From NCBI GenBank assembly GCA_037440545.1, contig JBBITX010000001.1:1-56631 (forward strand): 56,631 nucleotides of DNA. Direction: 5' to 3'. Numbering within the stretch: the stretch's first letter is position 1; every line of letters starts with the position of its first letter. The notes under the pieces were generated by a model. That model was not told the DNA's origin, made no database searches, and saw nothing but the letters and a program-made list of their open reading frames with translations. Both the position numbers and the translations under genes were made by a program. The stretch comes from Candidatus Bathyarchaeota archaeon. GTDB lineage: Archaea; Thermoproteota; Bathyarchaeia; Bathyarchaeales; Bathycorpusculaceae. Positions 1,143-55,231 of this stretch are shown here, piece by piece.

Positions 1143-1385
1143 CTACTCTTCAGGTAGAAACACATTATTACCCCAGCTTTCCTCACGCAAATCTTTTAAG
1201 AAAACGACTTCTTTCTCCTTTAACTCTTTGCAAAATGCGTCTAAGTTGCCAACTAGAAATTTAAAAAAACCTATACTACTAAAATGCTTATGCTTTATTT
1301 CTAAACCAAGCGCCTCTTCGCAAAATTTAGAGGCTCCCTCTAAATCTGAAACATGAAAAACCATGCACTGGATAGTTTTTATCAT
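1143..1385 (-). CDS. Short VOC/glyoxalase-fold protein (80 aa, abbreviated relative to the family)
   Basis: MVFHVSDLEGASKFCEEALGLE and ...ESWGNNVFL resemble the first and last segments of a glyoxalase/VOC module. It has a 4-nt overlap with the bud32 stop. Confidence 0.4.
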   Translation of the reverse strand: MIKTIQCMVFHVSDLEGASKFCEEALGLEIKHKHFSSIGFFKFLVGNLDAFCKELKEKEVVFLKDLREESWGNNVFLPEE

Positions 1386-2047
1386 TCTATTCGACCTTTC
1401 CTCTCGATGATATAGCGTCCCCTCCTCTCTATTTCCCTTATCTTGTCTAAAACATTTTTCACCATTTCCCCTTCTAAAACGCTTGAATAACCATTTATAA
1501 TATTGTCAAAGCATTCTTTTGCAAATTTGAAATGTGTACTTTGTAATGCTCTTTTCATTAGGTGCAAGTCAACACCTCTAGCTTCAAGGTCAGCTGTTTT
1601 TTCTCCAAGCCCGAAGTCTATGAAGAATATTTTTCCCTCAGGGTTTTGAATCATATTTGAGGTTGTCAAATCGCCGTGGACTATCCCGTTTTTGTGAAGT
1701 TTCCCTATAAACTTGCCGATAGTGTAACATAACTCCTGCCTTTGGCTTTTTTGAAAATTTAGGATCTTTTTAACTTGTACCCCCTCTATGAATTCCATTA
1801 TTAATAACCCCTCTTGAGCGTCAACAAAATATATTGCTGGTGTTGGGACTCCAGCCTTTTTCGCCTCATTTATAAGTTGCGCTTCATGAGCGGTTCTGTA
1901 TATTCTTATTCGCCTATCTAGTTCTGCTGCTCTGTACTTTTTTGGAAAGCGTTTTTTAAAAACAACCTTTTTACCATGCCAATCAGCGAGGTAAAGCCAA
2001 GCCTCAGCCCCTTTTTTAAAAGGCGACTGCTGGCTTATTTTATCCAC
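1382..2047 (-). CDS. bud32: KEOPS complex Bud32/PRPK-type kinase
   Basis: About 220-aa RIO-like kinase (GAEA..Y, HGDLTTSNM, IDFGL). It overlaps kae1 by 13 nt. Confidence 0.85.
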   Translation of the reverse strand: MDKISQQSPFKKGAEAWLYLADWHGKKVVFKKRFPKKYRAAELDRRIRIYRTAHEAQLINEAKKAGVPTPAIYFVDAQEGLLIMEFIEGVQVKKILNFQKSQRQELCYTIGKFIGKLHKNGIVHGDLTTSNMIQNPEGKIFFIDFGLGEKTADLEARGVDLHLMKRALQSTHFKFAKECFDNIINGYSSVLEGEMVKNVLDKIREIERRGRYIIERKGRIE

Positions 2048-3057
2048 GGGACCTCCGCCTCTTCAAGCCGCCATCTTAATTTCACATAACTGTTCTCAAT
2101 TTTTGTGGAAATTCCATGGGTAAATGTTAAAACACCAGTCCATGCAATCATTGCTCCGTTGTCAACTGCGTATTGACTTGGCACGACGCAAAATTTACAG
2201 TTATGTTCTTCTGCCACAGTTTTAACCATTTCTTGAAGTCTCTTGTTTGCAGCAACTCCGCCTGTTAGGAGAACCTCCTCTTTCTCTGTGTGGGCTATGG
2301 CTCTTTCAGTTACCTCTGTAACCATTGAAAAGGCTGTTTCCTGGAGGCTGTAGCATAAATCTTCAAGTCTGTACTTACCCTTTCTAAGCATGTTTTTAGC
2401 CGCTGTCAGCAACCCGCTGAAAGACACATCCATCCCCTTTACAGTATATGGCAATGGGATAAATTTCCCACCATCCCTTGCCAGCCTCTCTACAATTGCA
2501 CCGAAAGGTTCTCCTACCTTTTGGCGTAATCCAGCCTCTCTTGCAAAAACATCAATGCAGTTCCCCAATGCAATGTCTAGAGTTTCTCCGAAAACCCTGT
2601 AACGGCCAGAATCAAACGCTGAAACTATTGTGTTCCCCCCTGAAACATACAGTGTCACAGGATCTTTTGCCCCAGTTGTTAGCTTTCCAATTTCAATGTG
2701 TGCTAGAGAGTGATTCACACCTACCAGAGGTATGTTTAGATAGGCGGCCAGGGCTCTGGCTACAGTGGCTCCTGTTCGGAGGCACGGCCCAAGTCCAGGA
2801 CCTTGCGAGAACGCTATAACTGAAAGGTCTTCCGGTTTTATCCCTGCTTTTTTGAAGGCTTCCGCCAAAACTTTGGCCGCAACCTCCGCGTGGTGTCTTG
2901 CAGCCTCCCTGGGATGTATGCCTCCCTCTGAGGGAACGTATGCGCTTGCAGTGTTTGCAAGTATATCCCCTTCAAAATTTGATATTCCAACGCTGAAGTC
3001 GTCTGCGGTGCTCTCAATTCCAAGACTGTAACTTTTTCTGCCCCCTTTACCCATCAA
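2035..3057 (-). CDS. kae1: tRNA N6-adenosine threonylcarbamoyltransferase Kae1
   Basis: LGIESTADDFSVGI..., HH..AE, GVNHSLAHIE and GGVAAN motifs of the Kae1/TsaD family. Confidence 0.9.
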   Translation of the reverse strand: MMGKGGRKSYSLGIESTADDFSVGISNFEGDILANTASAYVPSEGGIHPREAARHHAEVAAKVLAEAFKKAGIKPEDLSVIAFSQGPGLGPCLRTGATVARALAAYLNIPLVGVNHSLAHIEIGKLTTGAKDPVTLYVSGGNTIVSAFDSGRYRVFGETLDIALGNCIDVFAREAGLRQKVGEPFGAIVERLARDGGKFIPLPYTVKGMDVSFSGLLTAAKNMLRKGKYRLEDLCYSLQETAFSMVTEVTERAIAHTEKEEVLLTGGVAANKRLQEMVKTVAEEHNCKFCVVPSQYAVDNGAMIAWTGVLTFTHGISTKIENSYVKLRWRLEEAEVPWIK

Positions 3058-3117
3058 ACATCCTTCATCAATAATTATTATTTTATCTTCAACAAAACAT
3101 ATTTTATTGAAAGCACC

Positions 3118-3126
3118 TATATATTA
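3118..3126 (+). promoter_or_regulatory. Putative TATA box for the TFE-beta-like gene
   Basis: TATATATTA lies about 26-34 nt upstream of ATG 3152, implying a leaderless or very short-leader mRNA. Confidence 0.3.
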
Positions 3127-3151
3127 TTCTGAGAATATTGGAGCTCTTGAA

Positions 3152-3529
3152 ATGCCAAAACACAATGATCTAGAGCAAAAGGCCTTACAAATAATAATGA
3201 ATGCCGGTAACGAGGGTTTACTCCAGTCTGAACTATGGAAGAAGTTGGGAGCAAGCAGTAGGGAGGGCTCTCGGGTAGCGTTAAAACTTGAAAGCAAAGG
3301 GCTAATACGCAGAGAAAGGGAGCTTCGCAATGGCAGGTGGACCTATAGGCTATATCCAAAGAGGCTTCCTGCATCGCTAGATTCTATTGCAGACTGCCCC
3401 TGCATGATGTGCCCTGACAGTTACAGATGTGGGGCTTCAGGAATTATAACTCCAAACAATTGCGAAAAACTAAGCGAGTGGCTTCTCAGCTCAGCCGAAA
3501 ATGACTATGGCTTGTTAGGTGACAGCTAG
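3152..3529 (+). CDS. Winged-helix protein with C-terminal Cys cluster (TFE-beta / RPC34-like)
   Basis: N-terminal wHTH (LLQSELWKKLG...ALKLESKGLIRRE) followed by CPCMMCPDSYRC...C. Start placed at ATG 3152, about 26 nt downstream of TATATATTA; the tracked ORF starts at TTG 3107. Confidence 0.5.
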   Translation: MPKHNDLEQKALQIIMNAGNEGLLQSELWKKLGASSREGSRVALKLESKGLIRRERELRNGRWTYRLYPKRLPASLDSIADCPCMMCPDSYRCGASGIITPNNCEKLSEWLLSSAENDYGLLGDS

Positions 3530-3531
3530 TT

Positions 3532-4143
3532 TTGCCTAAAGCTTGGATTCAGCAAAGGAAGAGAGACTATTATTACAGAAGAGCTAAAGAGGAGAAATAC
3601 CGTTCAAGAGCTGCATACAAACTCCTCCAAGCTGTTGATAAATACGGATTTATTAAGAAGGGCGACGTTGTCGTGGACCTGGGAGCTGCCCCTGGAGGTT
3701 GGATTCAAGCTGCTCGGAAAATTGTTGGACGTGAAGGCTTCATTTTAGGGGTTGACTTAAAGCGCATCCAACCTTTCTCTGAGGATAATGTTCAAACAAT
3801 TATAGGCGACATAACAATGGAGGAAACTGCCAGAAGAATCTCTGAAAGGCTTCTAAAGAAAGCTGACGTTGTCATTTCAGATGCCTCTCCGAATATTTCA
3901 GGGATATGGGAGTTAGATCACGCCCGTCAAATAGACCTCGCCCAAAAAGCATTGGAAATAGCTATGGAAGTTCTTAAGCCAGGCGGATGCTTCTTTGTGA
4001 AGGTTTTTCAAGGAGACATGTTTAACGACTTCTTAGAAAGAGTCAAGAAATTTTTTAAAGATGTAAGGGTGATAAAGCCAAAGGCCAGTAGAGCGCAAAG
4101 CTCTGAAATTTTTATTTTAGGAATGCACTTTAAACCTGAATAG
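3532..4143 (+). CDS. rlmE: 23S rRNA (uridine-2'-O)-methyltransferase RlmE/FtsJ
   Basis: RDYYYRRAKEEKYRSRAAYKL, DLGAAPGGW and SD.SPN..G motifs. Confidence 0.85.
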   Translation: MPKAWIQQRKRDYYYRRAKEEKYRSRAAYKLLQAVDKYGFIKKGDVVVDLGAAPGGWIQAARKIVGREGFILGVDLKRIQPFSEDNVQTIIGDITMEETARRISERLLKKADVVISDASPNISGIWELDHARQIDLAQKALEIAMEVLKPGGCFFVKVFQGDMFNDFLERVKKFFKDVRVIKPKASRAQSSEIFILGMHFKPE

Positions 4144-23229: not shown

Positions 23230-23706
23230 TCACAGTTTGTTAAGGAATTCTTTAGCTTCTTCAAGCGTTTTCCTAATTCTTTTCCAATGGGCTCCCTGCC
23301 AGTATATCTGTCCACATTTTGGGCACTCCCAGAACTCGTTGTAATAGGAGAACGTGCTCTTTTCAACTTTACCTTCAACGTTCTCCTTTAACGTCGGCTT
23401 TACCTTCGTATTGCATTTTGGGCATCTGGATGAGGTCATATCTACCTCAAGTTTTACGCCGAATCTTTTCGAAAGTTTTGCAAGTTTTTCACCCTCTGTT
23501 TGTCCATCAATGTAGAAGGCTTTCACTCCTTTTCCTATGGCTTGTTGATAAAGCTCTAAATCTCTGGTTAAAAGAATTCTGTCCTCTTTTCTTGCTATTG
23601 CGATTAGCTGGGAATCATCCAGCTTGTTAGAGTATTTGACGTTATATCCTAAAATTCTAAGCCAACGAGTTAGTTTTCCAAGCATTCCGTTAGCCAGAAA
23701 CCTCAA
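23230..23706 (-). CDS. Mut7-C (DUF82) PIN-like RNase domain protein with C-terminal zinc ribbon
   Basis: MRFLANGMLGKLTRWLRILGY N-terminus and CPKCN...CPKCG. It has a 4-nt overlap with pyrC. Confidence 0.75.
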   Translation of the reverse strand: MRFLANGMLGKLTRWLRILGYNVKYSNKLDDSQLIAIARKEDRILLTRDLELYQQAIGKGVKAFYIDGQTEGEKLAKLSKRFGVKLEVDMTSSRCPKCNTKVKPTLKENVEGKVEKSTFSYYNEFWECPKCGQIYWQGAHWKRIRKTLEEAKEFLNKL

Positions 23707-25058
23707 TAATACATTTTCCTCCTAACTATTTCTCCGCTTCCAGCCTCTGCAACTATATCGCCATCATCCATAACTAATTTTCCACAAACAAAGGTTTTAA
23801 CAGGTTTTCCTTTCACACGCCTGCCATCGAATGGGGAATACTTAGCTTTAGAATAAAACTTTGAAGAGTCAATTATACCCTCTTTTTTTGGGTCGATAAC
23901 AACTAAGTCAGCTTTATTGCCCTCTTTTAGGCTTCCCCTTCCCTTTAACCCAAAGATTTTCGAAGGATTTTCTGCCATTAGCTTAACTATTTCAGCTATA
24001 GAAAGCCTTTTCCTGTTCATTTCAGTCAGTAGGAGTGGAAGGGTTGTTTCAAGTCCCGGAATTCCTACATTAACCTCCCAAACGCTGCTTTTAATCTTCT
24101 CTTCGACGGTGTGAGGTGCATGATCTGAGGAGATAACGTCAATTAATCCCCTCTTCAGCCCCATCCAAAGAGCTTCTACTTGAACTTTCTCCCTTAAAGG
24201 AGGCGCTGTCAAACCTAAGGTTCCAAACTTTTTAAGATCGTCTATGGATAGGAGTAGATGATGGGGAGTTACCTCACATGTAACTGGCGCTGCAACCTTT
24301 TTTTTATGGCATATGGCTTCAAGGCTCTCTTCCGTGCTTATGTGGCAAATATGTGCGCTTTTTCCAGCTTTATTAACAATAGCCAATACACGCTTCACGG
24401 CTTTAACTTCAGCGTCCTTTGAATGTACTTTAAGAAAAGCTTCTACATCATTAAAGCCGTTACGTTTAAGAACTTCCTGGGCTTTTTTTAGTGATTCGTT
24501 ATCTTCGCTGTGGACAGCTATGGGAATCATGGGCGCAACCATTTTAAAAGCTTCTATTATAGCTTGATCATCATTTATGTTCAACCCGCCCTTTTGCTCG
24601 TTTAAAAATAGTTTAAAGGCTAAAACTCCTTCCTTAACCAATTTGCCTATTTCCTGAAGGTCTTCTGGAAATTCACAGTAGAAACCAACGTTAACCAAAA
24701 TCTTACCTCTAGCCGATGTCATCCTATTTCTAAGCGTTTCCAAACTCATTGTCACCGGTTCATTGTTTGGCATGTCAAGAACTGTTGTTATACCTCCAGC
24801 TGCAGCCGCGGCAGTTCCGCTGTAAAAGTCCTCCTTGTAAGCCTTTCCCTCATCCCTTAAGTGTACATGGACATCTATTAATCCTGGGAGTGCAAGCAAA
24901 TTATTTAAGCTAAGTCTTTTATATGCTTGAGGCATGCTTGCCTCCTTTCCAATTTTAACAATTTCTCCATTTTTTATGGCTAGGCAACATTCTTCTACCC
25001 TGTTGTTTATGTAGGCTTTTAATTCTGTTAAGACTAGGTCGACATTCAAATTGTTCAT
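23703..25058 (-). CDS. pyrC: Dihydroorotase (cyclic amidohydrolase family)
   Basis: PGLIDVHVHLRDEG and ..SDHAPH.. motifs. Distinguishing dihydroorotase from allantoinase or hydantoinase is not possible by eye. Confidence 0.75.
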   Translation of the reverse strand: MNNLNVDLVLTELKAYINNRVEECCLAIKNGEIVKIGKEASMPQAYKRLSLNNLLALPGLIDVHVHLRDEGKAYKEDFYSGTAAAAAGGITTVLDMPNNEPVTMSLETLRNRMTSARGKILVNVGFYCEFPEDLQEIGKLVKEGVLAFKLFLNEQKGGLNINDDQAIIEAFKMVAPMIPIAVHSEDNESLKKAQEVLKRNGFNDVEAFLKVHSKDAEVKAVKRVLAIVNKAGKSAHICHISTEESLEAICHKKKVAAPVTCEVTPHHLLLSIDDLKKFGTLGLTAPPLREKVQVEALWMGLKRGLIDVISSDHAPHTVEEKIKSSVWEVNVGIPGLETTLPLLLTEMNRKRLSIAEIVKLMAENPSKIFGLKGRGSLKEGNKADLVVIDPKKEGIIDSSKFYSKAKYSPFDGRRVKGKPVKTFVCGKLVMDDGDIVAEAGSGEIVRRKMYY

Positions 25059-25079
25059 CTCTTTATGTTTAGAAATTTA

Positions 25080-26498
25080 TTAAATAATTTTGGCAGAAGG
25101 TGTTTCGGCTAATCCGTTTTTTACAAGCGCTTTAACCTTATCTTTAACGGTTTCGAACAGTCTTTGGCTTATAACACCTTCCTTGTAAGCTTTTTCCAGT
25201 TTTTCCATGTCTAAGAGTTTTATCTTGCCGTCCGGCTGAATGCAAATGTCGACTTCTAAATCAACGTAACGCACTGCTTTTGGGTAAATCTCCATAGGCG
25301 TGTTAAGGTTTATGTAGGCTCCTTTCCATTTTCCTTCTTTCGAAAAGTAATTTGTTGTAATGTGCCATTCTCCAAACTTAGCATGGCTTATCGCCTTGTC
25401 GCCTATAACTTTTTCCACGGCTAAGCCGTTATAAAATCCATCTGATTTTATAGTTCTACAGTATTGTATTTCCTCTTCATTTAAAGTTTCAACAACTGCC
25501 TGTCCGAGTTGAATTGTTATTCCGCTAAGTTTAACATGCTCAACTTTAATCACTGAGCTTTCAGCTGGAAACTCGTGTTCAATCTGATCTTTAAAAAGCT
25601 TTTCTACTTCTCTTTTGTTCTGTCCGTTTTCCAGAAGTTTTTCAGCCATTTCAAGTGCAGCTGAAACTTTTCCTCCGCAGCTCTTGTAGAAGTGGTGTTT
25701 CTCAATTGTGGGGGCTGTAGAGGCTCTTAGCTCGTCCAACCTTTTCTTTGATAACGATGGGAATTCTATGTTCATGAAATATAATCCTTCAATAAGAAGT
25801 GAAGGAGCGGTTGCGGATGCTGCCTTTTCACTTAGGGCCTTAACTTTTTCATTCAGCATTGAAACCTCTTTTTCCAGAACCTCTATAGACTGATAGGCTG
25901 ACTGTCCCCTCCATATTATCCCCCAGCCTTCAGGAGCTAAACGTTCACCTAATTCGTAAAGTTCAGCTCGTCTATCTGGGTTGGGAATTTTTATGCTCAC
26001 TCCAATCTTTCTTTTTCGCACAAGTATAGCGAAGTTTCCGAAAAATTTGAGTTCCTTTGTCAGCGCCGGATTTTTCATGCCTATTTTCTCTCTCTTAACC
26101 TGAACAACAACTTCCTTCGAGTTTTCATCTGAAAACTCAGATTTTGGGAGCAAGCCTAGTACGCCGTTTCCAATGTCCACGAAGAAAACATCCTTTTCTT
26201 CGGAAACTATTTTTCCTTTGTATATTCCGTCGACGCTTACACTCCATCTCCTTGTTATTGAATCTTCAAGAACAGAATGAAGGATGGATTGAAAGGCGTG
26301 AATTGCCTCAGCCGTTCCGAGGGCGATCACTCCTTGAAGGTCGCGTCTATCTTCTATCTCCACGTCTGGTAATTCGTTATTTTCCGGCAAGTAAAATCTT
26401 TTCTTAATTGTATGGGAAGGCTGCACAATTTGGAAGTTTTTTTCTAAAAGAAGCTTTGTCAAGGCTGTTGTGTATATTCCTCTAACTTTTGCCTTCAA
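25080..26498 (-). CDS. FAU-1 / RNase E/G-like RNA-binding ribonuclease (C-terminal DUF402)
   Basis: MKAKVRGIYTTALTKLLLE N-terminus typical of archaeal FAU-1, followed by an S1-like middle region. Confidence 0.75.
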   Translation of the reverse strand: MKAKVRGIYTTALTKLLLEKNFQIVQPSHTIKKRFYLPENNELPDVEIEDRRDLQGVIALGTAEAIHAFQSILHSVLEDSITRRWSVSVDGIYKGKIVSEEKDVFFVDIGNGVLGLLPKSEFSDENSKEVVVQVKREKIGMKNPALTKELKFFGNFAILVRKRKIGVSIKIPNPDRRAELYELGERLAPEGWGIIWRGQSAYQSIEVLEKEVSMLNEKVKALSEKAASATAPSLLIEGLYFMNIEFPSLSKKRLDELRASTAPTIEKHHFYKSCGGKVSAALEMAEKLLENGQNKREVEKLFKDQIEHEFPAESSVIKVEHVKLSGITIQLGQAVVETLNEEEIQYCRTIKSDGFYNGLAVEKVIGDKAISHAKFGEWHITTNYFSKEGKWKGAYINLNTPMEIYPKAVRYVDLEVDICIQPDGKIKLLDMEKLEKAYKEGVISQRLFETVKDKVKALVKNGLAETPSAKII

Positions 26499-26501
26499 GG
26501 A

Positions 26502-27539
26502 TTAACCAACCTTTTCCACTTTGTAAATTCCGTTAATCTTTTCCACTTTAAACTTGACTCCTAGAAGGGTTTCTGCAAGCCAAATATTGGTATCCAGATG
26601 CTCTGATATGGTTCTTGTAAGATACACTGATCTTCCTTTTGCCAAAGCTATATATGGGATAAGCATGTCCGCTAAATGCACGTCGACGGTTGCCTTCGAT
26701 TCTAGTTCCCTTAAAAGTTTTTCGGCAGCTTCTTTTCCAATGGTTTCGCTGGGTTTATGAATTTCTCCTATCGAGTCAGCGCCTAAAACGCATCCATTAT
26801 CTGACTCAGCCCACAAAACCAGGGAGCTTCCTTTCTGCAGGGGGTTTGACTTGTCGTTTATGGTTTGGATTTCAGCCTTATACCCCCTATCTGAGAGACT
26901 CTTATTCGCAGCTGCAGCTTGGCGTTCAGCAACTCTTCTTTCCGCTAAAAAAGTGCATACGGAAACCCCATTGATTTTTTCAAGTGTGCCGAAGCTCTCT
27001 AAAACTAATGGCTTTAACTCCCTGCATGGCTCAACCATGAGTGTTACTTCACCCATGCCCTTAGGGTAATAACCATACTTTTGAACGCTTATAAACGCGT
27101 TTATGCCCATGCGCTTTAAAACTGGGATAAACACGTACTTCATGTAATTTATTGTAGGGGAGTTAGGAACATCTGTCCCGCCCTTTAAAACGTGGAGTTG
27201 AACAGTGCTTTTTGCGAAAAGGCATATAGGTAGCACGGTCATTAAGAGCATAGGGATGCTCCCTGCAGTGCCTATTTCAGCCTCGATTCTTCCGCCTTCC
27301 ACTTCTTTTGGCTTAAACCACAACTCCTTTGAGTTAATTTTTGCGCCTTCCACTTCTGCTCTGCAAAGTTTTGCAGCTGTTAGGACGGCTTCCAAGTGCT
27401 GAGGTCTTAAACCGGGCTGCGGCCTTCTTTGCCTTATATTAACTATGTGTAGAGGCTGCCCTAATATAGCTGCCACTGCTATTGAAAGTCTAAGTATTGT
27501 TCCGCTTCCGCTTTTTAAACTTCCATCAACCTCAATCAT
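26502..27539 (-). CDS. rtcA: RNA 3'-terminal phosphate cyclase
   Basis: IEVDGS..SGSGTILR.S.A.A...G.P..I.NIR..R..PGL.PQHL. Confidence 0.9.
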   Translation of the reverse strand: MIEVDGSLKSGSGTILRLSIAVAAILGQPLHIVNIRQRRPQPGLRPQHLEAVLTAAKLCRAEVEGAKINSKELWFKPKEVEGGRIEAEIGTAGSIPMLLMTVLPICLFAKSTVQLHVLKGGTDVPNSPTINYMKYVFIPVLKRMGINAFISVQKYGYYPKGMGEVTLMVEPCRELKPLVLESFGTLEKINGVSVCTFLAERRVAERQAAAANKSLSDRGYKAEIQTINDKSNPLQKGSSLVLWAESDNGCVLGADSIGEIHKPSETIGKEAAEKLLRELESKATVDVHLADMLIPYIALAKGRSVYLTRTISEHLDTNIWLAETLLGVKFKVEKINGIYKVEKVG

Positions 27540-46043: not shown

Positions 46044-46227
46044 TTGGAAAGAGACTGGGAAAGACTCATTGAAAGTTTGATGAGGGAAGGGATTCTGCGC
46101 TCTCCAGCTGTTATAAAGGCTATGCGTTCAGTGCCAAGGGCAAAGTTTCTACCTGAGAATATGCAGGCGTACAGCTCTGTTGATACGCCTCTTCCAATTG
46201 GATTCGGGCAGACTGTTTCTGCGCCAC
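46044..46227 (+). CDS. pcm: Protein-L-isoaspartate O-methyltransferase, proposed exon 1
   Basis: ...VPRAKFLPE...AYSSVDTPLPIGFGQTVSAP + first base of His codon. The colinear frame runs on into GLSFRLG and then TAG at 46251. Confidence 0.8.
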
Positions 46228-46258
46228 ATGGCCTAAGCTTTAGGCTTGGCTAGGCGAA
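46228..46258 (+). other. Candidate 31-nt bulge-helix-bulge (BHB) intron inside pcm
   Basis: Hand fold gives the following elements. Helix h: U46220-A46261 and G46221-C46260. Helix H: C46222-G46256, G46223-C46255, C46224-G46254 and C46225-G46253. Bulge 1: A46226 C46227 A46228. Helix h': U46229-A46252, G46230.U46251, G46231-C46250, C46232-G46249 and C46233-G46248. Bulge 2: A46257 A46258 A46259. Cutting after the second bulge nucleotide removes 46228..46258 and restores SAPHMVAIM in frame. Confidence 0.55.
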
Positions 46259-46746
46259 ACATGGTTGCAATAATGAATGAAGCCCTCCAGTTGGAAGTTG
46301 GACAAAGAGTGCTTGAGGTAGGAGCAGGGTCAGGATGGCATGCGGCAACAATAGCTGAAATTGTTGCTCCAAGCGATGCTCCAAGAAGCGAGTGGGGCCA
46401 TGTCTTCACCATTGAAATAATTGAAGGCTTAGCTGATTTCGCAAGGAGAAACATAATGAAAAATGGCTATGGCGACCGCGTTACAATATTGTGCTCTGAT
46501 GGATCTTTAGGCTTTCCTGAAAAGGCTCCATATGACAGAATCCTCGTTACAGCTGCAGCTCCAGATGTTCCGAAACCCCTAATAGAACAGTTAAAAAATG
46601 GGGGAATAATGCTCATCCCTGTTGGAAGCGTCCACCTATTTCAAAGTCTTATAAAAGTTACAAAAATTGACGGAAAGATCAGTAAAGAAAACCTCGGTGG
46701 AGTTGCCTTTGTCCCATTAACCGGCCGTTACGGACATAGAATCTGA
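46259..46746 (+). CDS. pcm: Protein-L-isoaspartate O-methyltransferase, proposed exon 2
   Basis: (H)MVAIMNEALQLEVGQRVLEVGAGSGWHAATIAEIV...ILVTAAAPDVP..L..QLK.GG.M.IPVG. The SAM-binding motif I is present. Exons 1 and 2 together total 672 nt, which is 223 aa plus the stop. Confidence 0.8.
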
Positions 46747-46896
46747 CTTTTTAATTGCAAACCTCTAAAAGGCTGAGCTGTTAAACACTTTTCATCTATC
46801 CGCTCACTTTACAGATTAAAATAGTTGTGCATGCCCCTTTCTAAAACAGCGCTTCTATAAAGGAAATTTTCTTGGCTTTGAATATTGAATGGTTCA

Positions 46897-47931
46897 TTAC
46901 ATAAACCATTTTTCTAAAGTTGTTTTTCCCTTGACTTTAGCCATTCCCTTATGCATTTTCTCCAAAGCTTTTCTAACACGATCTTCGGAGAAATCTCTTT
47001 CTCCGCAGAGGAATGCAACAACACCTTCAACATCCGGCTCTCTCCACTCTATCTTATAGTTATCCGTAACTTTAGGGTTGAGAAAAACCTCCCTGATTTT
47101 AACAGGATTCGCTGGAAAATCAGCATTTTTCAATTTTGGTAAAACATTTTCAAGACTTCCATACTCTTTTATAAGCTCTAAAGCCTTTTTCGGGCCTATG
47201 CCCTTAACGCCTTCAGGGTTAAAGTCTGTTCCAACAAGAATCCCTATGTCAATTAACTGCTCATGTGTAATTTCACATGTTTTAAGAATCTGTTCAAGTT
47301 CAACAATTTCGGGAATAACCTCGATGTAAACGTTTTTCCCGGGAAGTTTTCTTCTGCCAGAAATTGTAACGTTTCTAACAAGTTTAGGCGCGCCGAAAAG
47401 CAAGCTGTCGTAGTCTTGGCTGGCGCAGTAATCTGCGTCACCACGCTTAACAACATGGGCTGCTTGGGCTTCTCCCTCACTTGGAGCTTGAATCCAAGGA
47501 ATCCCCATCAAATCCAGTAAGCGCTTGCTGTCTTCAGCCATGTAGTCTTTAAGGCTTGCCGTAGCCTGCGCATAAATGCGTGCCTCTTCAACTCTACCCT
47601 CACTCAATGCCCGCTCATACTTTATTAAGGCTTCTTCTTTTGCTTTCATGCGCCTCTTAATTTCCACTTCTTTCAATGCTGGAGGCACACCGTCGAAAAC
47701 GTAGATAGGCCTAATTCCCAACTCCACAAGGTTGCTTGTTCTGTAAAGTAAACCGCTAAGGTGGCTTGTTATTCTACCGCTGCCATTTTTTAAAGGTGTC
47801 CCATCTGGCTGTCGAATTATTGCTAAAAACTGGTAAAGAGCATTGTAGGCGTCTATAGCTATAGACTTCCCACTTAAATCCTCAAGTTTCACCGGAGTTT
47901 TTGGAACTAGATCTCTAAGGTTAACACCCAA
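46897..47931 (-). CDS. fen: Flap endonuclease 1
   Basis: MGVNLRDLV N-terminus, YVFDG.PP..K and ..SEGEAQAA.. motifs. Confidence 0.9.
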   Translation of the reverse strand: MGVNLRDLVPKTPVKLEDLSGKSIAIDAYNALYQFLAIIRQPDGTPLKNGSGRITSHLSGLLYRTSNLVELGIRPIYVFDGVPPALKEVEIKRRMKAKEEALIKYERALSEGRVEEARIYAQATASLKDYMAEDSKRLLDLMGIPWIQAPSEGEAQAAHVVKRGDADYCASQDYDSLLFGAPKLVRNVTISGRRKLPGKNVYIEVIPEIVELEQILKTCEITHEQLIDIGILVGTDFNPEGVKGIGPKKALELIKEYGSLENVLPKLKNADFPANPVKIREVFLNPKVTDNYKIEWREPDVEGVVAFLCGERDFSEDRVRKALEKMHKGMAKVKGKTTLEKWFM

Positions 47932-53472: not shown

Positions 53473-53835
53473 ATGGGAAACTTTCGTCTCAAACAAGTTA
53501 TAATATTTCGATCAGATTTAAAACTCGGTAAAGGGAAAATAGCCGCCCAGGCTGGACACGCGGCAGTTTCAGCTGCAGAAGAAGCTCGCCAACGAAGAAA
53601 AGAATGGTGGGAGGCGTGGCTAAAGGAAGGCCAGTGTAAAGTTGTTGTAAAAGTAAAGAGCGAAAGGGAGCTTTTAACTCTGGAAAGGCAAGCGAAGGAA
53701 TTGGCTTTGCCGTGCGCGTTGATAGTGGATCACGGTTTAACCCAAATTCCGCCTGGAACAATAACATGTTTAGCCATAGGGCCCGCACCTTCTGAGGAGG
53801 TTGACAAAATTACAGGAAATCTCAAGCTTTTATAA
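53473..53835 (+). CDS. pth: Peptidyl-tRNA hydrolase, archaeal Pth2 type
   Basis: QVIIFRSDLKLGKGKIAAQAGHAAV...TQIPPGT.T.LAIGP. Confidence 0.9.
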   Translation: MGNFRLKQVIIFRSDLKLGKGKIAAQAGHAAVSAAEEARQRRKEWWEAWLKEGQCKVVVKVKSERELLTLERQAKELALPCALIVDHGLTQIPPGTITCLAIGPAPSEEVDKITGNLKLL

Positions 53836-53851
53836 TTTTGAGGCATAAACC

Positions 53852-55231
53852 TTGAAAATTTCAAGGCTGGAAAAAAGCATAGGGATAGAAGTTTATGCAA
53901 CTCACTCTAAGGGCGTTGGAGGCGTTATAAGACAGTTCTGCGAGGATTTTCAAGTTCAAGAGCTGCTCATTAACGGTTCAAGGGCTGATCTATCTTTCCC
54001 CTCGGCCGACGTTAAGATTCCAGCTTCACACCCCCATGAAATGGGAAGTCATTTACTTTGCCTTCTCATCAAGCGCAACTGGGATACCTTCCAAGTTCTT
54101 GAAAGCCTAGCTAGGCAGCTTGGCATAAGCCCAAAAAGGATTAAAATTGCCGGAATAAAGGATGCAAAGGCCGTAACAGCTCAACACATCACAATTGATG
54201 GTGTGAAACCAGAAGACGTGAAGGAAGTTAGAATTAGGGATGTGGAAATTCAACCTCTAGGCTATTTTAGAAGCAGACTTTCAGCTTATCTCCTCCTCGG
54301 TAACTCTTTTAAGATAACGATCCGCTCCATAAGCCATAGTAAAACGTTCATTAGGCGGGCAATCGGGGATACATTTAAGGAGCTTGAAGTTTTAGGCGGC
54401 TTACCCAACTTTTTCGGACATCAGCGTTTCGGGACAACACGTCCAATTACCCACCTTGTTGGCAAAGCATTGGTTAAGGGCGATTTTCAGAAGGCAGCAA
54501 TGCTTTTCCTTGCAAAGGCATTCCCTAACGAACATGTAGAATCAAAGATAGCCCGTGAAGAGCTATATAGAACTCAGGATTTTAAACAGGCTTTGAAAAG
54601 CTTTCCTAAAAACCTCTATTATGAGCGCCTGATGCTTCTACACCTAAATAAAAATCCTAAAGATTACATTGGAGCTTTCAGGAGGCTTCCAAGCAGACTT
54701 CGCGTTCTTTTTCCACAAGCCTATCAAGCATATCTCTTCAATAGGTTTCTCAGCAGGAGAATTGCCATGGGGCTCCCACTCAACAGCGTTGAAATTGGAG
54801 ATTACACAGTGAAACTTGACAGTTCAAGCCTACCCACCATGGATAGCTGCATTGTAGGCGAGACAACATTACACGAGATTAGAAGAGAAATAGCCTATGG
54901 GAGGATGCGTTTAGCCATTCCTCTGGTTGGTTATAGACAACGCCTTTCCGGAGGGGTGCAGGGTGAAATTGAAAAAAGTATATTGGAAGAGGAAGGCGTA
55001 GCATTAGAAGGCTTTAAGGTGGAAGGTATGCCGGAATTAAGCCTTAAAGGAGGAATGCGGATAGCTTTAACCCCGCTTAAAGATTTCGAAATAGAGGAAA
55101 TATCAAAGGATTCGGCTAACCCTTTTAAAAACATGGTAAAGTTGAACTTTACACTGCATCGGGGAGCATATGCCACAGTATTCTTAAGGGAAGTTATGAA
55201 GCCACTTAACTTAATTAAGGCTGGTTTTTAG
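53852..55231 (+). CDS. truD: tRNA pseudouridine synthase TruD/Pus7 family
   Basis: IGIEVYAT...GGVIRQ..EDF.V.E, AGIKDAKAVT (catalytic Asp) and NFFGHQRFG motifs. Confidence 0.85.
   Translation: MKISRLEKSIGIEVYATHSKGVGGVIRQFCEDFQVQELLINGSRADLSFPSADVKIPASHPHEMGSHLLCLLIKRNWDTFQVLESLARQLGISPKRIKIAGIKDAKAVTAQHITIDGVKPEDVKEVRIRDVEIQPLGYFRSRLSAYLLLGNSFKITIRSISHSKTFIRRAIGDTFKELEVLGGLPNFFGHQRFGTTRPITHLVGKALVKGDFQKAAMLFLAKAFPNEHVESKIAREELYRTQDFKQALKSFPKNLYYERLMLLHLNKNPKDYIGAFRRLPSRLRVLFPQAYQAYLFNRFLSRRIAMGLPLNSVEIGDYTVKLDSSSLPTMDSCIVGETTLHEIRREIAYGRMRLAIPLVGYRQRLSGGVQGEIEKSILEEEGVALEGFKVEGMPELSLKGGMRIALTPLKDFEIEEISKDSANPFKNMVKLNFTLHRGAYATVFLREVMKPLNLIKAGF

Follow-up and report, generated by a model that had tools for sequence, protein, structure and literature searches.

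The window analysed here, a stretch of 56,631 nucleotides (nt) occupying positions 1 to 56,631 of contig JBBITX010000001.1 (assembly GCA_037440545.1) of a Candidatus Bathyarchaeota archaeon, encodes a protein-L-isoaspartate methyltransferase (PIMT) whose gene, pcm, is interrupted by 31 nt within its active-site motif. Comparison with related loci makes it very probable that this segment, 46228..46258, is a pre-mRNA intron of the bulge-helix-bulge (BHB) type that lies inside the coding sequence and is spliced by the tRNA-splicing endonuclease EndA together with RtcB. A BHB pre-mRNA intron had been put forward in an original prediction made from the letters of the window; its coordinates and bases are all correct on re-reading of the sequence, and every in-silico test capable of refuting it came out in its favour. 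The gene is visible as two overlapping open reading frames (ORFs) in different frames, 46044..46253 (69 amino acids, aa) and 46246..46746 (166 aa), which together constitute one pcm with the following parts:

46044..46227, forward strand: pcm exon 1, with the TTG start as listed; its last base is the first of a His codon (...GCG CCA C), as supported by the spliced translation, Pfam and the DNA alignment
46228..46258, forward strand: intron of 31 nt, AUGGCCUAAGCUUUAGGCUUGGCUAGGCGAA; a clean gap against the intronless loci L001, L002 and L004, with homologous inserts in 144 other loci
46251..46253, forward strand: in-frame stop codon TAG inside the intron
46259..46746, forward strand: pcm exon 2, which starts with AC (completing the His codon CAC), followed by ATG GTT GCA; its stop codon is at 46744..46746

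Deletion of 46228..46258 reproduces the predicted continuous ORF of 223 aa with its SAPHMVA motif, reading ...PIGFGQTVSAPHMVAIMNEAL... and ...GQTVSAPHMVAIMNEAL...; the restored motif is ...GQTVSAPHMVAIM.... The spliced product matches the Pfam family PCMT from end to end (E = 8.6e-65), and the Pyrococcus furiosus PIMT (1JG1) aligns with it through the junction without a gap, GQTVSAPHMVAIM being identical in the two proteins. These two matches bear out the earlier claim that the ORFs are halves of a single PIMT. Excision of 46229..46259 would give the same RNA and excision of 46230..46260 the same protein, so that the protein alone leaves the boundary ambiguous by 1 or 2 bases. Since the frame and SAPHMVA are rebuilt by excision only, full-length PIMT would be obtainable solely from the spliced mRNA.

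The boundary is seen directly in relatives that lack the insert. The nearest intronless proteins, from metagenome-assembled genomes (MAGs) of Bathyarchaeia, are uninterrupted, 225 aa long and 81-83% identical in aa sequence, and their genes stand beside glmS as in the window. Their DNA reads GCTCCAC-ACATGGTT, and in the MAFFT alignment the insert faces a clean gap of 31 nt whose edges are exactly CCAC and ACATGG. Hence, the junction predicted by the rule of cutting after the second base of each bulge is the natural intronless sequence. A scan of GTDB, with one genome per species, returned 80 Bathyarchaeia pcm loci; as the original prediction had anticipated, their alignment is informative, with an insert of 30, 31, 32, 33 or 35 nt at the identical nucleotide in 25 of the 80 species genomes and the exact junction in the nearest intronless relatives. 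Together with the window, these make up a set of 26 alleles. A further pattern search of metagenomes (CCACA, 14-44 nt, ACATGGT....AT.ATGAAYGA), which left the 3' strand of the central helix H (see below) and the Ala wobble base free, gave at least 119 matches, all of them in pcm (..GQT[IVA]SAP / HMV[ASC]IMNEAL..), and the insert measures 19-36 nt in 119 of the 119 matches listed. At every insert length from 19 to 36 nt the frame and SAPHMVA are restored, the length varying through indels in the loop and the frame-restoring boundaries staying constant across alleles. A stop in the exon-1 frame occurs in every insert of the 26-allele set, including the non-frameshifting ones of 30 and 33 nt. In four loci (L047, L171, L195 and L200) the unspliced frame reads SAPQ, and splicing as C/AC would restore the His.

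This recurrence bears on an assembly or sequencing artefact in the window contig. An exact-protein look-up of the window exon-2 ORF with two alternative starts found no record in the gene-position index, which might be read in favour of an artefact. Against it, 25 MAGs that were assembled independently and in different studies have homologous inserts, and so do at least 119 metagenome contigs; recurrence in independent assemblies excludes an artefact, whose likelihood we put at practically nil. The lengths bear also on translational recoding, in which the ribosome would either change frame or jump over the insert, in the manner of phage T4 gene 60. Such a mechanism might use the stop that closely follows a possible take-off codon, the stable hairpin, and the CAU present at both 46227-29 and 46260-62. 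However, landing on CAU at 46260-62 continues with GGU UGC, which is the wrong frame, and in most alleles the triplet before the ATG is AAC, leaving no His codon. Moreover, the 30- and 33-nt inserts need no frameshift and nevertheless hold stops, and no one rule fits 19-36 nt. As the covariation described below, which involves an exon strand, is also unexpected under bypassing, we regard recoding as exceedingly improbable.

The coding capacity of the interrupted alleles is intact. All 26 spliced coding sequences of the GTDB-plus-window set are of full length (223-248 aa when counted from the start that gives the longest protein) and end in the conserved LTGRYGH-type tail. The 94 metagenome loci complete at both ends likewise all give open spliced ORFs, 92 of them of 209-252 aa and two shorter (145 and 169 aa); thus, 118 of 120 have a typical PIMT length. 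Among intron alleles synonymous divergence is near saturation (pS about 0.61) and pN/pS amounts to 0.22 in exon 1 as against 0.10 in exon 2; both exons are under strong purifying selection. These data speak to a two-sided alternative: that EndA cuts the transcript without productive religation, making the element a turnover site that silences pcm, or that the gene is a tolerated pseudogene derived from a small DNA insertion. The in-frame stop in the insert is compatible with either, and cleavage of a BHB in an mRNA leader is known from the 5' untranslated region (UTR) of HVO_1309 (PMC7714728). The short direct repeat ACATGG flanking the window insert had left the insertion reading open in the original prediction; its offset is 33 nt and not 31, and in most relatives it decays to ACAT (the 5' site being ACATAG), so a target-site duplication was rejected. 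Both versions of the alternative are at odds with strong selection on both exons across synonymously saturated divergence, with spliced ORFs that are all open and almost all of typical length, and with an excision that restores the exact codon at boundaries that stay fixed while loop indels vary the length. The further lesions in relatives that would mark a pseudogene are absent. The intact spliced ORFs, the pN/pS values and the stops in all inserts exclude a decaying pseudogene, and the evidence in hand is enough to refute that variant; taken as a whole, we judge the alternative very unlikely.

In the preferred reading as a spliced intron, the RNA of the window would adopt the following fold:

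46222..46225, forward strand: 5' strand of the central helix H, exon bases CGCC (codons GCG CCA), pairing with 46253..46256
46253..46256, forward strand: 3' strand of helix H, intron bases GGCG
46226..46228, forward strand: 5' bulge ACA, with the predicted cut after C46227; unpaired in the RNAalifold consensus and without variation among the 26 alleles identified through protein homology
46229..46252, forward strand: inner helix h', formed by 46229-33 with 46248-52
46235-39 with 46243-47, forward strand: distal stem of 5 base pairs (bp) with a UUA loop inside the intron hairpin
46257..46259, forward strand: 3' bulge AAA, with the predicted cut after A46258; outer closure by G46221-C46260, plus U46220-A46261

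All base pairs listed in the original prediction are complementary, and the distal stem occupies what it had drawn as a plain 14-nt loop. With the loop free to pair, this splicing fold comes to -16.0 kcal/mol, and the minimum free energy (MFE) structure of 46212..46269 (RNAfold) is a different BHB-like fold of -19.4 kcal/mol, with a z of -1.1 that is not significant alone. The MFE fold has the bulges CAU 46227-29 and UAG 46251-53 and would excise 24 nt; it was rejected, since the frame would stay broken and relatives do not conserve its helices; the structures of the relatives lead us to prefer the splicing fold. Thus, the fold proposed earlier is favoured by the relatives, although it is not the MFE structure of the window. 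An outer helix GUUUC/GAAAC was also rejected, being incompatible with AUCUC alleles and a GAUAC variant. A generic motif with a 4-bp helix, a 3-nt bulge and an inner helix of at least 4 bp has about 2,290 occurrences on each strand of the window (about 3e-4 per position pair), so that the combination of H, bulge and h' is by itself common. The fall of such a motif on one of the three SAPHMVA-restoring excisions is a coincidence of about 1e-3. The earlier remark was that the agreement is hard to ascribe to chance; the comparative data take it beyond chance.

The consensus over the alleles is G CGCC ACA (hairpin) GGCG A-N-A C. Both bulges measure exactly 3 nt in all 26 alleles and in 100 aligned independent metagenome alleles, and helix H is 99-100% paired in both alignments. 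Given the 26 alleles in an ordinary MAFFT alignment, RNAalifold recovered helix H, the unpaired ACA and h' independently, and the same elements appear in 21 of the 26 single-sequence MFE structures. In this alignment 99% of H and 100% of h' is paired, with double changes in three of four h' pairs; 88% of cells are paired as against 17-39% with slid partners, and the covariation score was reached by none of 500 shuffles. A covariance model built from the 26 alleles, to which the window intron scores 78.6 bits, recovered all 100 metagenome loci searched (30-78 bits). Among those loci, 96.4% of cells are paired (slid controls 16-41%) and double changes occur in all five h' pairs. Across alleles h' is 4-10 bp long and 96-100% paired, its first pair being observed as U-A, C-G, G-C and A-U. 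The compensatory helix changes that the original prediction had suggested looking for extend across the exon-intron boundary: in L107, L181 and L194 (two distinct alignment rows) the Ala codon GCG has become GCA and the intron GGCG has become GGUG. The first two bases of the 3' bulge vary (AA, AG, AU, AC, UU, UC, UG), the third being the exon A of CAC. The G46221-C46260 pair is invariant, and U46220-A46261 can form in 2 of 25 distinct alleles, one of which is the window. Neither the sequence nor the length of the intron loop is conserved; only the splicing signals appear to be selected, and we see nothing that points to a function of the intron itself. Searched with the covariance model, 1.19 Mb of related loci gave no match outside pcm; the search is biased towards pcm, as the model holds the pcm exon flanks.

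The constraint imposed by this architecture reaches into the codons. GCG, CCA and CAC are each used in 26 of 26 intron alleles, as against 25, 15 and 42 of 56 intronless alleles (Fisher 2e-7, 8e-11 and 4e-3); relatedness inflates these tests, and the freely varying wobble positions next to these codons, in the very same 26 sequences, serve as an internal control. Specifically, the Thr and Ser beside them have wobble bases that are free in intron and intronless alleles alike, and the frozen bases are exactly those of helix H and the 5' bulge.

The shortest inserts come from a soil clade in which they measure 19-25 nt. The 19-nt form, ACGGAAAAUUCCGGGCGAC (type B, L086-L205, e.g., L088, L176 and L199), has a 4-bp h' and a 4-nt loop, and may be close to the minimal size for such introns. 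In a protein search with this clade nearly all of the best 120 matches are exon-2-only calls of 151, 155 or 179 aa with 80-91% identity, and 81-aa exon-1 gene calls adjoin them; the interrupted pcm is thus the norm in this clade. A search with the FEN-1 beside its pcm gave a Bathyarchaeia label, at 79% identity, and one other label that is evidently mis-binned, and we tentatively assign the clade to Bathyarchaeia. The mislabelled case is P0287, an archaeal FEN-1 88% identical to the soil-clade neighbour and labelled 'Candidatus Angelobacter sp.' in NCBI, whose contig is probably mis-binned.

Such calls are what would be expected if pcm had undergone fission, with two polypeptides of about 62-70 aa and about 161 aa (from Met 46261) assembling non-covalently and the hairpin serving as an intercistronic element. 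An ATG does lie two bases into exon 2, and exon 2 is routinely called as its own ORF, with the 151/155/179-aa PIMT clusters dominating matches and the 81-aa exon-1 calls next to them. However, fission leaves unexplained the helix between exon-1 codons and the spacer, the GCA/GGUG compensation and the frozen GCG CCA CAC. The invariant His would be lost in the four loci with SAPQ, the tails after the His are unconserved with stops at variable positions, and the bases 5' of the ATG (GGCGAAAC) are unlike a Shine-Dalgarno sequence. Furthermore, the break would split a contiguous active-site motif. We consider fission highly improbable and return to the intron.

The original prediction had described a canonical hBHBh' motif. 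The two 3-nt bulges, the 4-bp helix between them and h' stand; the outer helix h, for which the strict form calls for at least 2 bp, has one conserved pair. As G46221-C46260 alone is conserved, the pcm introns belong to the relaxed HBh' class. An RNAalifold consensus with 75 nt on either side adds a helix between the exons:

46191..46201 and 46206..46209, forward strand: 5' strand of the distal exon-exon helix, CUUCCAAUUGG and GGGC
46282..46285 and 46287..46297, forward strand: 3' strand of the distal exon-exon helix, GCCC and CCAGUUGGAAG

Here CUUCCAAUUGG pairs with CCAGUUGGAAG and GGGC with GCCC, and a 121-nt segment of the window adopts this fold with z = -2.7. The third-position entropy at its codons is 0.0-0.6 bits in intron alleles as against 1.5-2.0 bits in intronless ones, the flanking codons having 1.5-1.9 bits in both. 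Most intron alleles form 14 of 14 pairs, as against a mean of 8.9 in the intronless alleles, and metagenome alleles of the same type form a mean of 12.8 of 14. With moderate confidence, we propose that this helix would clamp the two exons to each other and present the 3' site; it may compensate for the reduced outer helix.

Several observations weigh against the spliced-intron interpretation or parts of it. In the window the splicing fold is less stable than its competitor by about 3.4 kcal/mol. The outer helix h required by a strict BHB is a single conserved pair, making cleavage dependent on an EndA of broad specificity. The 100-allele metagenome alignment was fitted to the covariance model; hence, it leans towards the structure and flatters its figures. 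The distal helix shows no compensatory substitutions in the alleles compared and is lacking in the soil clade with short introns, where 6 of 14 pairs form, and for these two reasons the clamp remains a proposal of moderate strength.

We picture the splicing as follows. In the pre-mRNA the exon bases CGCC would pair with the intron bases GGCG as the 4-bp central helix, flanked on the inner side by the bulge ACA and the covarying hairpin and on the outer side by the A-N-A bulge closed with one conserved G-C pair. EndA would cut after the second base of each bulge, and RtcB would join ...GCGCCAC to ACAUGG..., thereby restoring CAC for His as well as the active-site motif SAPHMVA, which is invariant. 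In introns of this type, cleavage and ligation go through 2',3'-cyclic phosphate and 5'-OH ends, and the intron is often circular. The distal exon-exon helix would probably hold both exons together in the clade of the window. Selection would keep the intron splice-competent, freezing exon synonymous sites as well. Both enzymes are reported from all circular and near-complete archaeal genomes that one study, with Bathyarchaeia in its dataset, examined (PMC12918454). Relaxed HBh' motifs are cut efficiently only by (alpha-beta)2 or epsilon2 endonucleases (PMC6379350), and the (alpha-beta)2 EndA bearing the L1 specificity loop is reported across the TACK superphylum (PMC5829648). Neither EndA nor RtcB is found among the 30 window ORFs scanned with Pfam.

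The carriers are scattered over the lineage. Hosts of carrier loci are labelled Bathyarchaeia or Bathyarchaeota, and in a neighbour-joining tree of PIMT one carrier clade of 18, including the window, consists mostly of hot-spring MAGs; hot springs of Tengchong and Kamchatka (isolates DRTY-6, JZ, ZZQ and KM4337) are among the sources of carrier MAGs. The remaining carriers fall on several scattered branches interleaved with intronless sequences. This single-gene tree is compatible with an ancient origin and repeated loss or with lateral spread and cannot decide between the two. Judged from the alleles compared, the pcm intron is a widespread, inherited trait of Bathyarchaeia that extends beyond one genome.

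The window is rich in genes for RNA processing, in the regions 23230..27539 (reverse strand), 53473..55231 (forward strand) and 1382..4143; according to Pfam these genes include TruD, PTH2, Kae1 beside a Bud32-like kinase, and FtsJ. Three further genes were identified with Pfam:

26502..27539, reverse strand: RtcA, RNA 3'-phosphate cyclase
25080..26498, reverse strand: protein with S1, RNase E/G-like and DUF402 domains
23230..23706, reverse strand: Mut7-C RNase

RtcA makes the 2',3'-cyclic ends that RtcB ligates. At the soil-clade locus L206 RtcA lies about 9 kb from pcm. In the window pcm directly adjoins FEN-1 (46897..47931, reverse strand), with a gap at 46747..46896. Intronless relatives (L001, 6696..8572) have DUF3786 and PALP-family genes between the two, so that the order of genes around pcm is not the same in the clades with and without the intron. 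When the window was scanned for the generic HBh' motif and its ORFs were tested for joining, thousands of chance motifs and about 130 spurious joins resulted, and a non-exhaustive check of the window found no second split gene. Ten adjacent same-strand ORFs were passed through Pfam; their family matches are all complete separate domains, and one 90-aa ORF has no match. No tRNA genes and no Rfam families were found in the window, and ARAGORN, run on 60 related loci, reported one tRNA and nothing on introns.

The closest parallel is the cbf5 pre-mRNA intron of Crenarchaeota, reportedly described by Watanabe in 2002. This intron is short, lies in coding sequence, often has a relaxed BHB and is excised by the tRNA-splicing endonuclease. 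It occurs patchily among relatives, which has been read as gain and loss (Yokobori 2009, PMC2738675), a pattern that the patchy pcm intron resembles. In both genes a conserved full-length protein follows from removal of a short intron, a removal that is predicted for pcm, and in both annotators have mistaken the interruption for a frameshift or pseudogene. They differ in that pcm codes for a protein-repair methyltransferase and not a pseudouridine synthase, in uncultured Bathyarchaeia and not Crenarchaeota; in that the splicing of cbf5 has been shown experimentally, the pcm intron being known from sequence alone; and in that the 5' strand of the pcm helix H consists of invariant active-site codons and its distal exon-exon helix is conserved at synonymous sites. 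The BHB introns of archaeal tRNA and rRNA were reportedly classified by Marck & Grosjean in 2003 into strict hBHBh' and relaxed hBH and HBh' forms. The pcm intron has the same geometry, cut sites at the second bulge base (predicted for pcm) and an intronic h'; its host is an mRNA without a tRNA body, and its outer helix is one G-C pair. By definition a BHB has two 3-nt bulges on opposite strands with a 4-bp helix between them (PMC6379350), and the pcm inserts (19-36 nt) fall within the 11-175 nt size range of tRNA introns (PMC2738675).

Two other systems involve mRNA. In Haloferax volcanii the 5' UTR BHB element of HVO_1309 is an mRNA substrate of the archaeal splicing endonuclease and affects expression (PMC7714728). 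That element lies in the leader of a euryarchaeal gene, whereas the pcm motif is in the reading frame and is a relaxed HBh'. In HAC1/XBP1 a small intron of a coding mRNA is cut by Ire1 at stem-loop sites and the exons are ligated by Trl1/RTCB, which changes the frame. A role of RtcB in such splicing is noted in the literature (PMC8718801). Both the endonuclease (Ire1) and the recognition motif of HAC1/XBP1 differ from those of the pcm intron, and its splicing is stress-regulated; this analysis found no evidence of regulation of the pcm intron.

To our knowledge, cbf5 has since 2002 been the only confirmed case of an endonuclease-type intron inside an archaeal coding sequence. A 2020 study lists no mRNA cases besides cbf5 and one element in a 5' UTR (PMC7714728). 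As the gene and the lineage are both different from those of cbf5, the pcm intron is new and not the known case; the novelty claimed in the original prediction agrees with the full-text literature outside subscription journals, in which we found no prior report of a pcm or Bathyarchaeia mRNA intron. One practical consequence concerns annotation. Gene callers split pcm in the short-intron clade (e.g., L206, 9763..10456) into pieces of 81 aa and 151, 155 or 179 aa, and more than 100 'PIMT' protein clusters from one search (P0124-P0240) are exon-2-only products; these split calls are a systematic annotation error caused by the intron. Since callers split or truncate pcm, inferences on pathways and completeness drawn from Bathyarchaeia MAGs are affected, and a BHB-aware annotation step is warranted for such genomes.

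Specialists in archaeal RNA processing and annotators of uncultured archaea should find the result highly interesting. The more than 140 natural variants provide data on what a relaxed BHB needs outside tRNA, on the constraint that an intron places on exon synonymous sites and on intron gain and loss. A more far-reaching idea, which we regard as unlikely though worth stating, is that EndA/RtcB mRNA splicing might be a routine, selected housekeeping step across much of Bathyarchaeia, with exons that have co-evolved with it (frozen codons, distal clamp), a regulatory gate that ties PIMT to the capacity for RNA cleavage and ligation, and further coding genes interrupted in the same way, which annotation at present dismisses as truncated or as pseudogenes. 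If the pcm intron is real, it would add a second gene family, from an uncultured lineage that is abundant worldwide, and mRNA splicing by the tRNA machinery would be no crenarchaeal curiosity.

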